IMG/VR virus record: IMGVR_UViG_2690316066_000015
Strand: one strand, 5' to 3'
From: a virus
Lineage: Duplodnaviria > Heunggongvirae > Uroviricota > Caudoviricetes
DNA length: 4,617 nucleotides
Shown: piece after piece, positions 1 through 4,617 of the stretch
Numbering within the stretch: the first letter of the stretch is position 1
Layout: each line of letters begins with the position of its first letter
Translations under genes and position numbers: made by a program
The notes under the pieces: model-generated
Database searches by the model: none
What the model was told of the DNA's origin: nothing
Seen by the model: the letters and a program-made list of their open reading frames with translations, nothing else

Positions 1-119
1 ACGGCGAGCATTCGGTGGAGCTGACCCAACGTTTTGCCCGCGCCAGCGCCTTTACTCATGTGCTGCTGCTGAAAAGCCCACAGGAGATCCGCCCAACCAT
101 CGACACACAAAAGGCGTTA

Positions 120-302
120 CTACTGGTGCGTTTCCCGGCTGACTTCTCGCGCAAACAGGAGCTGTGTGGCCAGTGCCCGGATGGCTTCAGCCCCCGTTTT
201 CACACGAAGGTCGATGCGGCGGCCAAATCGTTGCAAATCCCCGTAAAGGCAGATGCGTGCCATTCCCGGTGACGCCAGAGGGAGTGTGTGCGTCGCTGCC
301 AT
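120..302 (-). CDS. I: Tail tip assembly protein I, truncated (N-terminal ~48 aa lambda gpI-like, then divergent with stop at codon 61; probable pseudogene or remnant)
   Basis: ATG at 302-300 lies 103 nt inside the 3' end of K in another frame, as in lambda. [48 protein letters not shown] matches the start of lambda gpI as recalled. After residue 48 (about position 159) the sequence diverges ([12 protein letters not shown]) and ends at tandem stops TAG (120-122) and TAA (117-119). Lambda gpI is 223 aa; no continuation of I-like sequence is visible in any minus-strand frame down to position 1. Confidence 0.55.
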
Positions 303-943
303 TTGTCGGTATACCTCTCTCGTTTACTCAGTTGTTCAGGAATATGGTGCAGCAGCTCACCGTCGCCGCAGTAAATGGCGGCGTGATTCGGCACCGATGA
401 ACCAAAACAGCACAGCAGCACATCGCCCGGCTGCGCCTCTGTCAGTGCGACACGGTAAAAACCAGTAGCCTCCATATTGTCAAGATAGAGATTCTGACCG
501 TGACGCCACCAGTCATCCCCGCGATGAAAATCCGGCATCTCAATCCCCGCCAGATGGTAAGCATCCCGGAACAGTGTGTAACAGTCCGTCACCCCGTACT
601 CAAAGCGCCGCCCGGTGAGATGCGGCACACAGCGGAACTTGTGAATCGCCCCCCGGCAGACCAGCCACCACGGCAAATCGCTCTGCACCTGCAGCCGCCG
701 GTCAGCCTCACTCAGCCAGGGCAGACCACCGGGGTGGCTGTGGACCAGCGCCACAATCTCACCCTGCATCTCTGCCTGCAGCCAGTCCTCCGGAGCCATC
801 CGGAAATACGCCTCCCGCTCACCGGAGATATTCACGCAGGGGAAATATCTTTCCCCCTCCGGCGTGCTTACCACGAAGCCGCACGACTCCGCTGGCGCAC
901 ATCGCCGGGCGTGCGCCAGAATCGCTGATTCTGTCTCTGTCAT
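200..943 (-). CDS. K: Tail tip assembly protein K (phage lambda gpK family; MPN/JAMM-like plus NlpC/P60-like domains)
   Basis: Open frame 985..200 on the minus strand. The first ATG is at 943-941 ([15 protein letters not shown]...), 4 nt after the L stop, giving 247 aa. The track's longer 261-aa ORF starts at a TTG (985). The classical 199-aa lambda K corresponds to an internal ATG at 799-797 ([16 protein letters not shown]...), which has a GGGAGG Shine-Dalgarno-like sequence about 11 nt upstream. The sequence contains an HSHPGG(x7)SxxD JAMM-like motif and a Cys/His pair (DCYTLF, NHAAIY) consistent with an NlpC/P60 fold. TGA at 200-202. Start codon choice is uncertain; the 3' end is firm. Confidence 0.85.
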
Positions 944-947
944 GGGA

Positions 948-1646
948 TTACTGCGAAAGTTTGTTAATGGAAAGGAAGCCGCCAAAGTTGCCGACGTTAT
1001 TGCGAAACTTACAGCCGCTCAGGCATTTGCTGCATTTATCCTTCGTGATATCGGACGTCGGCTGGTCATATTCATCCGCGACTGCCGGACCGTGATAACC
1101 GCACTCATCACCGCGATAGGTCCAGGTGCAGGTGTTGGCCAGCATGATACGCCCCGGAAAAACAGCGCCATCCGTTTCCGTCGGCGTGGACAGTACAAAG
1201 GAGGCACTCACCGCGCTCAGTTCGCTGCACTGCTCGATGCGCCAGCGGCTGATCACCTCCTGCTCCGGATCGGCGTCTCTGTTTCCGTTGACGAAGTTCA
1301 CCGCATCCAGAAAACGGGCGTAAACCTTACGCCGGACCACCGTTCCGCCGACCAGACTCTGCATATCTTCCACCATACCGGTGACCATGCCGTACAGGTT
1401 AGAGACTGCCAGCGTGGGCCGCGTACTGGTGCCTTTGCCATTCAGTTCAAAACCGCTCCCCTGAATGGGATACGCCTGATACTGCCTCCCCTGCCAGGTG
1501 ACCGGCTCACCTTTTTCGTTCTGCTCATTACAGAAAAAATAACGTTCTCCACCGACCTCTGTCAGATCGATTTCCCAGAGCACCACGCTGGCCGACTGCT
1601 CCGCACGGGTGCATTCATTCAGTGTTTCCTGCCGGATATCCTGCAT
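948..1646 (-). CDS. L: Tail tip protein L (phage lambda gpL family; iron-sulfur cluster-binding)
   Basis: 232-aa ORF (MQDIRQETLNECTRAEQSASVVLWEIDL...), same length as lambda gpL and highly similar as recalled. The C-terminal cysteine cluster is present (C173, C182, C205, C208, C212: ...NTCTWTYRGDECGYHG...DKCSKCLSGC...). ATG at 1646-1644, TAA at 948-950. Confidence 0.95.
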   Translation of the reverse strand: MQDIRQETLNECTRAEQSASVVLWEIDLTEVGGERYFFCNEQNEKGEPVTWQGRQYQAYPIQGSGFELNGKGTSTRPTLAVSNLYGMVTGMVEDMQSLVGGTVVRRKVYARFLDAVNFVNGNRDADPEQEVISRWRIEQCSELSAVSASFVLSTPTETDGAVFPGRIMLANTCTWTYRGDECGYHGPAVADEYDQPTSDITKDKCSKCLSGCKFRNNVGNFGGFLSINKLSQ

Positions 1647-1975
1647 CAGTTCACCACCTGTTTAAACTCTGCGCTGAACCCAACACGCAACATACTGACC
1701 TGCGACGACCATTTTGCGCAGGTCACCTTTATCTGCCTGTAACCATAAGGCGGCGTCCACAGAAAGGCCTTCCAGCCCCCGTGCTCAGCCAGAAACGACT
1801 CCAGCGCCGTGGCCTCCTCACGGGAGACAGACAGCGTCACGCTGTACGTTTTCAGGTCAGCGTTCAGCCCGGCAGGCGCACGCTGGGAATAGCCATCACC
1901 AAAGCGCACCTCCCTGACGGAAGGAGCCGATGTCACATCCATCCCGGGTTTCACTTTCCAGCGGAAGGTTTTCAT
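1646..1975 (-). CDS. M: Minor tail protein M (phage lambda gpM family)
   Basis: 109-aa ORF (MKTFRWKVKPGMDV...KVTCAKWSSQVSMLRVGFSAEFKQVVN), same length and near-identical to lambda gpM as recalled. Its ATG at 1975-1973 overlaps the H stop (ATGA) and its TGA at 1646-1648 overlaps the L ATG by 1 nt, matching lambda H-M-L synteny. Confidence 0.95.
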   Translation of the reverse strand: MKTFRWKVKPGMDVTSAPSVREVRFGDGYSQRAPAGLNADLKTYSVTLSVSREEATALESFLAEHGGWKAFLWTPPYGYRQIKVTCAKWSSQVSMLRVGFSAEFKQVVN

Positions 1976-4479
1976 CGTCCACCTCCGGAGAACAGTCCAC
2001 CATCACGCATCTGTGTCTGAATTTCATCACGGGCACCCTTGCGGGCCATGTCATACACCGCCTTCAGAGCAGCCGGACCTATCTGCCCGTTCGTGCCGTC
2101 GTTGTTAATCACCACATGGTTATTCTGCTCAAACGTCCCGGACGCCTGCGACCGGCTGTCAGCCAGACTGCCCGGTGTACCGACATAACCACCGGTGGCA
2201 TAGCCGCGCATCAGCCGGTAGAGATTCCCCACGCCAATCCGGCTGGTTGCCTCCTTTGTGAAGACAAATTCACCACGGTGAACAATCCCCGCTGGCTCAT
2301 ATTTGCCGCCGGTTCCCGTAAATCCTCCGGTTGCAAAATGGAATTTCGCCGCAGCGGCCTGAATGGCTGTACCGCCTGACGCGGATGCGCCGCCACCAAC
2401 AGCCCCGCCAATGGCGCTGCCGATACTCCCGACAATCCCCACCATTGCCTGCTTAAGCAGAATTTCTGTCATCATGGACAGCACGGAACGGGTGAAGCTG
2501 CGCCAGTTCTGCTCACTGCCGGTCAGCATCGCCGCCATATTCTGTGCAATACCGTCAAAGGTCTGCGTGGCCACACTTTTAACCTGCGAAAAACTGTCCG
2601 TCGCACTTTCCGCCCACACTCCCCAGCCGGACTTCATCCCGGCCATCCAGCTTCCACGAAGCTGCTCCTCCGCAGACCAGGTGTTCTTCAGTGCCGATGT
2701 GGCCTTCGCCAGCGCAGCCGGATTATCACCGTACACCTCACGAAGGCGCTGCTCTTCCGACTCCCGCTGCGCCTGACGGTCGGTGAGGCCGCGGGCTTTT
2801 GCGCTGATTGCCGCCTGCTTCGCGCTTTGCTGCTGTTCAAACCGCGCCGCCTGCTGTGCCAGCTCATTCAGCCGCTTCTGGTGTTCAATCTTGTCTCCCA
2901 GCTCAGCCAGCTGGCGTTTGTACTCCAGCGTCTCTTTCTCATGAGCCAGCAGGGATTTTTCCTGCTCAGATAACTGCCGTTTCGTGGCGGCCTCTTTCAG
3001 GACCACATACTGATTTTCCGCTTTCCATAAATCACGGCGCTGCTGGCTGATTTTTTCATTCGCACCGCTGTGCTTCTCCAGCGTCCTGAGCTCAGTTTCA
3101 AGCGCCAGCAGGGCTGCATGCGCCTGGTCTTCCTGGCGCTCACCGGCAGACACCTTCACACCGGACGGCTTTTTCTGCGTCGACTCATAATCCTTTTTTG
3201 CCGACGCCATCAGCGTGTTGTAATCCGCCTGCAGGATTTTCCCGTCTTTCAGGGCCTTATTCAGCTCTTCCTGCCGGGCGGTATATTTCTCCAGTGGCGT
3301 CAGCAGGCGCTCATACGCCTTCTGCGCCTCTCCGGTATACTTCAGCTGTGACGCCTCACGCTCAGCCCGGTCCCTTGCCGCCAGTTCACCGGCTTTTTCC
3401 ATATCCGACTGCAGCGTGGCCGCTGCCAGACCCAGACGGGCATTTTCCCGGTCATCCCATGCGCCCTGAAGGTTGGCACGAAAAGAGGAGGTCTTTCCCC
3501 GGCGCTGGCTCCGGCTCTGGTACCACTGCCATTTTTTATCCGCCTCATCAAATGCCTTCTGCGCACTGACGAGCATATCCGCTGAGGATTCAGGACGACC
3601 GATATCCAGAATGGCATCCCACATCGATTTGAATGCCTTCCCTGTTTTATCCGCCCAGGTCTCCAGTGTTCCCATGTTTTCTTTCAGGCGACGGGTCTGC
3701 TCATCAAAGCCTTTCGTGGCGATATCGTTCGCCGCCTGCAATGCCCCGGCCTCGTCTCCGGAACGCTGCAGCTGTGCAACATACGCAATCTGCTCTGCCG
3801 TCACGTTACGGAACTGGCGCGCCATCGCCATCAGTCCCGACGTCGGGTCAGTGGTCAGCTTCCCGAAGGCTTCAGCGACTTTATCCACCTCCACACCGGA
3901 TGCAGACGCAAAACGCGCGACACTCTGGTTGATGGCATCAAACTGTTCACCACCACGCACACCGGCATTCACCAGGGCTGCCAGTGACTCTCTCGCCTGG
4001 TTAAACGTCAGCCCTGCTGCCTGCCCGGCTCTTGAGAGCGTCAGCATACGATCGGCAGTCAGTCCGGCCTGATTGCCGGAAAGGACCAGGGTTTGATTAA
4101 ATTCTGAAAGCGTGGCGTCGCCCTGGTACCAGGCGTACGCCAGCGCACCTGTCGCCACCGCCAGCGAGGTGACCCCGACCATCGGCAGGGTGATCGCACC
4201 GGCAAGCCCCCTGAACATGGGGATCATCCCGCCGAAGGAGTCCTTCACCTGACCGCCCTGTTGCAGCAGGATCAACCAGGGATTCTGACCACCGGCAAGC
4301 TGCGTGGCGATATCCGTAAACTGTGCGGGCAGGGTTCGCATGGCCGCTTTATACTGCCCGACGGAAATCCCGGCTTTTTGTGCAGCCAGCGCCTGGCGGC
4401 TCAGGCCCTGTTCAACAGCACTGGCGGTTTTTCTGGCGTCGGTATCCAGACCTGAAAAATGACGCCTTACCCGGCTCAT
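1972..4479 (-). CDS. H: Tail length tape measure protein (phage lambda gpH family)
   Basis: 835-aa ORF with ATG at 4479-4477 and TGA at 1972-1974. The translation (MSRVRRHFSG...QYKAAMRTLPAQFTD...GGLFSGGGR) is near-identical over long stretches to lambda gpH as I recall it, especially the N-terminal ~290 aa and C-terminal ~250 aa. It has a hydrophobic segment near the N-terminus (AITLPMVGVTSLAVATGALAYAW), a long charged, coiled-coil-like central region and a Gly/Ala-rich segment (GSIGSAIGGAVGGGASASGG), typical of tape measure proteins. Stop overlaps the M start (ATGA). Similarity not computed. Confidence 0.95.
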   Translation of the reverse strand: MSRVRRHFSGLDTDARKTASAVEQGLSRQALAAQKAGISVGQYKAAMRTLPAQFTDIATQLAGGQNPWLILLQQGGQVKDSFGGMIPMFRGLAGAITLPMVGVTSLAVATGALAYAWYQGDATLSEFNQTLVLSGNQAGLTADRMLTLSRAGQAAGLTFNQARESLAALVNAGVRGGEQFDAINQSVARFASASGVEVDKVAEAFGKLTTDPTSGLMAMARQFRNVTAEQIAYVAQLQRSGDEAGALQAANDIATKGFDEQTRRLKENMGTLETWADKTGKAFKSMWDAILDIGRPESSADMLVSAQKAFDEADKKWQWYQSRSQRRGKTSSFRANLQGAWDDRENARLGLAAATLQSDMEKAGELAARDRAEREASQLKYTGEAQKAYERLLTPLEKYTARQEELNKALKDGKILQADYNTLMASAKKDYESTQKKPSGVKVSAGERQEDQAHAALLALETELRTLEKHSGANEKISQQRRDLWKAENQYVVLKEAATKRQLSEQEKSLLAHEKETLEYKRQLAELGDKIEHQKRLNELAQQAARFEQQQSAKQAAISAKARGLTDRQAQRESEEQRLREVYGDNPAALAKATSALKNTWSAEEQLRGSWMAGMKSGWGVWAESATDSFSQVKSVATQTFDGIAQNMAAMLTGSEQNWRSFTRSVLSMMTEILLKQAMVGIVGSIGSAIGGAVGGGASASGGTAIQAAAAKFHFATGGFTGTGGKYEPAGIVHRGEFVFTKEATSRIGVGNLYRLMRGYATGGYVGTPGSLADSRSQASGTFEQNNHVVINNDGTNGQIGPAALKAVYDMARKGARDEIQTQMRDGGLFSGGGR

Positions 4480-4617
4480 CTGCTCATCGAAACGGACAGC
4501 ATCCAGGGTAACACACTCACCCTTGAGCAGCTGAAAGCAGAAAACCGCGCGGTACTGGTCACCGTGGGGTTATCGAGCGGTTCCGGGTTATCGCTGTTTG
4601 AGCATAGCGACGTTGAG
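4476..4617 (-). CDS. Possible 3' end of the upstream tail assembly gene (lambda G-T / gpT position), 5'-truncated by the window edge; frame and exact stop unresolved
   Basis: Synteny: in lambda, T ends overlapping the start of H. One minus-strand frame is open across all 47 codons from the window edge and ends in TGA at 4476-4478, overlapping the H ATG (ATGA arrangement). However its translation is Ser-rich and uses rare codons (CTA, AGG, AGA, TTA). The other two frames stop at 4588-4590 (TAA; H frame) and 4559-4561 (TGA). I cannot match any frame to gpT from memory, so coordinates are provisional. Confidence 0.3.
   Translation of the reverse strand, partial: STSLCSNSDNPEPLDNPTVTSTARFSAFSCSRVSVLPWMLSVSMSR

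Follow-up and report, generated by a model that had tools for sequence, protein, structure and literature searches.

A lambdoid tail-gene fragment of Escherichia coli whose gene I runs into the chromosomal gene ybhR: prophage-remnant junction or assembly chimera

The 4617-nt window analysed here, that is, the whole stretch of DNA under study, carries on its minus strand the beginning of a lambda-like tail-tip assembly gene I that breaks off after some 48 codons, which raises the question of what interrupted the gene, what DNA it was joined to, and whether the join belongs to a real chromosome or to an assembly. A preliminary description of the window had proposed either a deletion or recombination breakpoint in a decaying prophage or a mosaic junction to a different tail-tip module. 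By exact look-up of its H product, the window was identified as the complete 4617-bp contig CDRY01000495.1 of the E. coli draft assembly GCA_001373235.1. This whole-contig nature lay outside the scope of the preliminary description, as did a second break at the opposite end of the phage DNA (4506/4507), and the first reading is corrected on two points: at its break, gene I is joined to host DNA from a chromosomal gene, and the contig in its entirety is a fragment truncated at both ends.

The truncated gene, hereafter I′, is a 60-aa ORF on the minus strand (120..302). As in lambda, its start codon lies within the 3′ end of K, the two genes overlapping (120-302 versus 200-943), and the genes upstream of it follow the lambda order H-M-L-K. 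Residues 1-48 of the ORF were 100% identical to residues 1-48 of lambda gpI (48/48), in agreement with the lambda-gpI-like N-terminus of about 48 codons described previously. Base-by-base comparison placed the last phage-derived base on this side at window position 158, so the earlier estimate that similarity ends near 159 was accurate to one or two bases. Codons 1-48 (159-302) are therefore phage-derived, and codons 49-60 are antisense ybhR, adding 12 unrelated residues before the read-through ends at the tandem stops TAG (122-120) and TAA (119-117); these stops (117..122, minus strand) were confirmed at the positions first reported for them, inside antisense ybhR. When aligned with lambda I and J, as had been suggested, the gpI match ended at residue 48 and no J was found, in contrast to a full-length gpI of ~190-223 aa that includes the C-terminal block TDNGKQNTYFSSLDNMVAQGNVLPVLYGEMRVGSRV. 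Unlike lambda gpI, I′ keeps 48 of 191-223 residues; it has lost the Gly/Ala-rich middle together with the TDNGKQNTYFSSLDNMVAQGN... block conserved at the C-terminus, and ybhR rather than J follows the gene. The Pfam domain Lambda_tail_I (PF06805) was likewise incomplete, covering only residues 14-48 of I′ and profile positions 2-39 of 83 (E 1.2e-10), whereas the I protein of an intact relative reached profile position 83.

Tblastn searches of the whole window with lambda I, a relative's I, a relative's 112-aa ORF, J, and T detected no further I- or J-like coding in any frame, which upholds the earlier statement that no continuation of I exists. In all close relatives, I was intact at 191-223 aa, with a 112-aa ORF and then J after it, and a short functional I followed by J, which the preliminary description had named as a finding that would overturn its reading, was not encountered among them. 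The 112-aa ORF is conserved between I and J in the relatives (at 19092-19430 in one of them), gave no Pfam hit, and has no counterpart in lambda. The I′ ORF ends after 48 codons because phage DNA is joined there to the interior of ybhR and, since the downstream DNA is not phage, no frameshift correction, single or otherwise, can restore I. As far as the assembled sequence goes, the truncation of gene I is certainly a non-homologous join of phage DNA to ybhR, and I′ is without function.

These observations bear directly on a group of readings in which the abrupt end of the lambda I similarity would reflect a mosaic switch to a non-lambda tail-tip module, an I restorable by a frameshift, or a genuinely short functional I. 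That abrupt end is the one feature such readings account for. The DNA beyond it is ybhR and not phage, no I, J, or other tail-tip coding was detected by tblastn in any frame, and every relative has an I of 191-223 aa with J after it, against the 2-39 of 83 profile positions retained here; we consider these readings barely credible. The mosaic junction of the preliminary description has thus been abandoned, its supposed tail-tip module being the interior of a chromosomal ABC-transporter gene. The alternative of a deletion or recombination breakpoint stood as far as the join itself is concerned, with ybhR as the partner and I intact in the relatives, while its corollary of a decaying prophage still has an assembly chimera as a live rival.

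The partner sequence at window positions 1..156 (plus strand, sense) corresponded to nt 170-325 of the 1107 nt of ybhR, a core chromosomal gene encoding an ABC-2 permease of the ybhGFSR group, and to YbhR residues 58-108; the contig begins there. Over positions 1-160, equivalent to ybhR nt 170-329 in the annotation of E2865, the identity with ybhR was 99.4%, in frame with YbhR residues 58-110 (tblastn), and the segment was present in 5422 of 5426 complete E. coli genomes (megablast), although only as a fragment of the gene in the window. Comparison with related prophages, which the preliminary description had recommended for locating the break, resolved the left junction to positions 157..160: ybhR is matched exactly through position 156, phage sequence extends from 158 onward, and the trinucleotide GGA at 158-160 is common to both parents, giving a microhomology of 3 nt. 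Base 157 is an A that matches neither parent, the corresponding base being T in the ybhR of all best-matching genomes and G in nine of nine related prophages; this mismatch may have arisen with the join or stem from an error in a read. Around the join, the similarity between the parental sequences gave a local score of 6 versus a mean of 5.98 for random pairs. A match of a different I allele (IHE3034 type, PhiR55_1, Ayreon) extending to window position 144 in megablast was set aside because it contained two gaps and represented chance similarity to ybhR; this chance match pairs window positions 144-160 with positions 6001-6017 of one matching sequence and has the pattern TTCT..CG.AAAC.

The join also creates a chimeric ORF on the plus strand (3..272), composed of YbhR residues 58-110 followed by 37 codons of antisense I, which runs off the start of the contig. 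It was called as an 89-aa cut gene, and its full product would be 146 aa. The tail of this fusion was found in no protein among 5.8 billion sequences. Candidate proteins of the predicted fusion length of 146 aa were rejected on inspection of their sequences, being only frameshifted or partial YbhR fragments.

Between the two breaks, a phage block H′-M-L-K-I′ of 4349 bp is retained, all on the minus strand. K (200..943), encoding a tail-tip protein with JAB/MPN and NlpC/P60 domains, is intact, with 247 aa as called, and is 100% identical to its relatives; the minor tail protein gene L (948..1646; 232 aa, PF05100) and M (1646..1975; 109 aa, PF05939) are also intact. Window positions 158-4506 aligned without gaps at 99.3% identity with intact prophage tail modules, and positions 158-2496 at 100%; given this gapless alignment, the truncation cannot be attributed to chance similarity. 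Over K-M, the block was 94.7% identical to lambda, its nearest relatives being wild prophages. The tape-measure gene H′ (1972..4506) lacks codons 1-13: in the relatives, whose H comprises 857 aa, the start of the gene lies 39 nt beyond the base equivalent to window position 4506. While the H protein of a relative aligned over residues 12-857 in tblastn, it is the DNA match that sets the break after codon 13. The longest H′ ORF (1972-4479) starts at the internal Met23 (4479) and encodes 835 aa; this product, WP_055324166.1, is known only from contig CDRY01000495.1, and its annotated start is an artefact of the internal Met. All 32 differences between the phage block and its best relative lay inside H′, in three patches (2497-2515, 3014-3592, and 4090-4095), a pattern typical of tape-measure gene mosaicism. 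A 53-aa cluster representative grouped with H′ at 90% clustering was dismissed as a database quirk, being an unrelated Logan lipoprotein fragment. With no J, no complete I, and an H truncated at its N-terminus, the H′-M-L-K-I′ block cannot build a tail tip.

At the right junction (4506..4507), phage DNA ends with base 4506 and preT (yeiT) sequence starts with base 4507, with no microhomology. The preT fragment (4507..4617, plus strand, sense) covers nt 592-702 of the 1239 nt of this core gene and PreT residues 198-234; its 111 nt were 100% identical to preT in many E. coli genomes, PreT was also matched here by tblastn, and the contig stops there. The host flanks therefore amount to 157 nt on the ybhR side and 111 nt on the preT side. 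In E2865, the ybhR and preT pieces lie 1.97 Mb apart on opposite strands (ybhR minus, preT plus).

Both junctions show the properties of illegitimate joins, with two sides that are each colinear with uninterrupted parents, an abrupt switch between them, and microhomologies of 3 nt and 0 nt. Since no k-mer is shared by the parents at either join, they are not k-mer overlap misjoins and look like illegitimate joins, and a misjoin through a shared repeat was rejected on the ground that the parents share only chance-level similarity at both junctions. In the reference sequence, no IS or repeat was present at the points where the contig stops. A Shigella or IS-bounded contig found no support, as the RefSeq organism is E. 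coli and neither end carries IS sequence. Megablast searches across the junctions found both absent from 5426 complete E. coli genomes, and the exact junction strings were not found in GTDB genome representatives or metagenome contigs. Neither the I′ products of 60 and 47 aa nor the YbhR fusion of 89 aa had an exact record in protein collections, and a literature search for the accession returned nothing relevant.

The singleton status of the junctions and of the 835-aa H′ product is one of several features that agree with an assembly or library artefact, in which the contig would represent the tail segment of a normal, intact prophage that was assembled as a unique piece and whose ends were extended into unrelated chromosomal DNA by chimeric reads or by faulty extension or gap-filling. 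Both ends of the whole contig are chimeric, the flanks of 157 and 111 nt are about one read length, and the assembly is fragmented, this being contig number 495. The blunt and 3-nt joins, together with the unmatched base, would fit ligation-type chimeras with a read error. Furthermore, the retained genes are undecayed, and the prophages most closely related to this tail module are intact and integrated at ompW. Set against this, phage sequence continues beyond neither 158 nor 4506; at each end, reads across the junction would thus have had to prevail over the true continuation. There is also no shared k-mer able to cause a misjoin in the graph. It would further be a coincidence, of about 1 in 500 by the estimate given below, that each partner is found 18-20 kb away from a classical lambdoid att site, on the side and strand for which the join is a simple deletion. 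We regard an artefact as a sizeable minority possibility; if it were the true explanation, I and H would be intact in the real genome.

The position of the partner genes spoke for real deletions. In E2865, a lambdoid prophage adjoins ybhB at att-lambda with its genes H-M-L-K-I-J in ascending order, and 32.7 kb past I, on the other strand, comes ybhR, 18.5 kb of that distance being host DNA; with this arrangement, a simple deletion would produce exactly the join of sense ybhR to antisense I. The prophage Sp15, at mlrA/yehV in Sakai, carries its genes on the minus strand in the order J-I-K-L-M-H and faces preT with its int end, and mlrA is situated 19.2 kb upstream of the preT breakpoint, which again makes the join of antisense H to sense preT a simple deletion. 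The orientation expected of a simple deletion would thus fit a prophage at att-lambda for the I end and one at mlrA for the H end, the three relatives inspected being at ompW. By a rough estimate, we infer that two random chimeric partners would meet this geometry with a probability of ~0.002, or about 1 in 500, the requirement being that each partner lies no more than 20 kb from a known lambdoid att site, with side and strand both correct, and the number of such sites being taken as about 20-25. Because both junctions have simple-deletion geometry, we favour the view that they reflect one or more real illegitimate deletions of lambdoid prophages, which we hold to be moderately probable. The failure of phage sequence to continue past either junction also speaks for such deletions.

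On the left, an illegitimate-recombination deletion would have occurred in a lambda-like prophage integrated in the usual orientation at the ybhC/ybhB site (att-lambda). It would have taken the remainder of I together with J, lom, the tail-fibre genes, and attR on the phage side, and ybhB, bioABFCD, uvrB, yvcK, moaABCDE, ybhLMN, clsB, ybhPQ, and the 3′ two-thirds of ybhR on the host side, amounting to about 33 kb in an E2865-like genome (about 18.5 kb of host DNA); I′ would then read 12 codons of antisense ybhR and stop. On the right, a deletion of ~55 kb, including about 19 kb of host DNA, would extend from inside an mlrA/yehV prophage into preT, crossing the prophage head, lysis, regulatory, and int genes and cutting H after codon 13; the host genes predicted to be lost on this side are mlrA, yohO, yehWXY, osmF, bglX, dld, pbpG, cdd, sanA, yeiS, and preT nt 1-591. 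Canonical prophages at att-lambda and mlrA are inverted relative to each other, so a single molecule could carry both junctions only after an earlier inversion between prophages: the two, lying in opposite orientation, would first have recombined, inverting the terminus-spanning segment and giving a hybrid prophage with mismatched att ends, unable to excise. Alternatively, two distinct remnants with a common tail segment may have been collapsed into the contig. Large prophage-flanked inversions are documented in E. coli O157 (PMC8991562, citing Iguchi et al. 2006). The complete single-locus history, in which an inversion between att-lambda and mlrA/yehV prophages was followed by two illegitimate deletions, each removing ~19 kb of host DNA and together leaving a 4.35-kb H′-I′ island, appears to us rather unlikely; if it were true, the isolate would be Bio-, UvrB-, Moa-, and MlrA-.

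Several observations count against the deletions. A unique single-copy locus would be expected to yield a contig reaching deep into ybhS and preA, neither junction has a second instance, and three events are needed to place them on one molecule. The retained ORFs are undecayed, so the event, if real, must have been very recent. Base 157 matches neither parent, and the inspected relatives lie at ompW. This integration site was found for the close relatives in three of three complete genomes inspected for context, and the prophages at the sites named by the geometry carry different alleles, the att-lambda prophage of E2865 being 87% and Sakai Sp15 82% identical to the window. The H allele was not matched above 98.8% among complete E. 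coli genomes, and the search for a closer ancestor at att-lambda or mlrA with this allele was unsuccessful, the best H matches reaching 98.8% and the one inspected sitting at ompW. Separately, contig JJLP01000013 (11718-12354) contains the same K-I-J module adjoining a host gene that encodes a MASE4-GGDEF protein, which places the module at more than one integration site.

The ompW location of the nearest module relatives would also suit a different real rearrangement, in which two chromosomal breaks captured between them 4.35 kb of DNA from an ompW-type prophage or an incoming phage, with no deletions from att-lambda or mlrA prophages. Such a fragment could have served as filler at the junction of an illegitimate inversion between ybhR and preT, for which the 1.97 Mb separation and opposite strands of the two genes in E2865 have the appropriate geometry, or have been part of a patchwork of short fragments beside repeats; short host flanks would be expected if the flanks were themselves short captured pieces or were duplicated elsewhere. 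However, a capture of this kind leaves the proximity and orientation of the partners to att-lambda and mlrA unexplained and requires several illegitimate joins at once, and no reciprocal junction or second instance was found. We consider it improbable.

If the moderately probable deletions are real, host genes would have been lost on both sides, namely bio, uvrB, and moa on one side and the stretch between mlrA and preT on the other, the predicted phenotypes being biotin auxotrophy, UV sensitivity, and, for want of molybdenum cofactor, chlorate resistance, and the contig would be at best another example of E. coli disarming prophages by illegitimate deletions that remove neighbouring host genes. 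The contig also carries a warning: where a phage gene is truncated close to the end of a short draft contig, the cause may be a chimeric or unresolved assembly, and the reads deserve a check before prophage decay is concluded.

When compared to known systems, the feature is of a known kind, either a prophage-remnant junction or an assembly chimera. One parallel is found in the classical defective lambda lysogens, in which deletions extend from the prophage through bio-uvrB-chlA (moa), as in chlorate-resistance and delta-H1-type strains. The left junction resembles these deletions in its interval and direction, with a break in the late or tail region joined to DNA beyond bio-uvrB-moa, but the phage is not lambda, and the source is a draft genome of E. 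coli labelled as wild type. We know of no described laboratory deletion that matches the ybhR end point or the preT break. The fragment is also similar to the cryptic lambdoid remnants of E. coli in being a set of tail genes with truncated genes at its ends; such remnants, however, typically bear IS insertions and frameshifts and have diverged, while the present fragment carries no IS, matches intact phages at 100% identity along 2.3 kb, and is a singleton that may not be physically real. Finally, the mutually opposed orientation of the two prophages in the proposed history is shared with the prophage-mediated inversions of O157:H7, in which oppositely oriented prophages serve as inversion substrates (PMC8991562).
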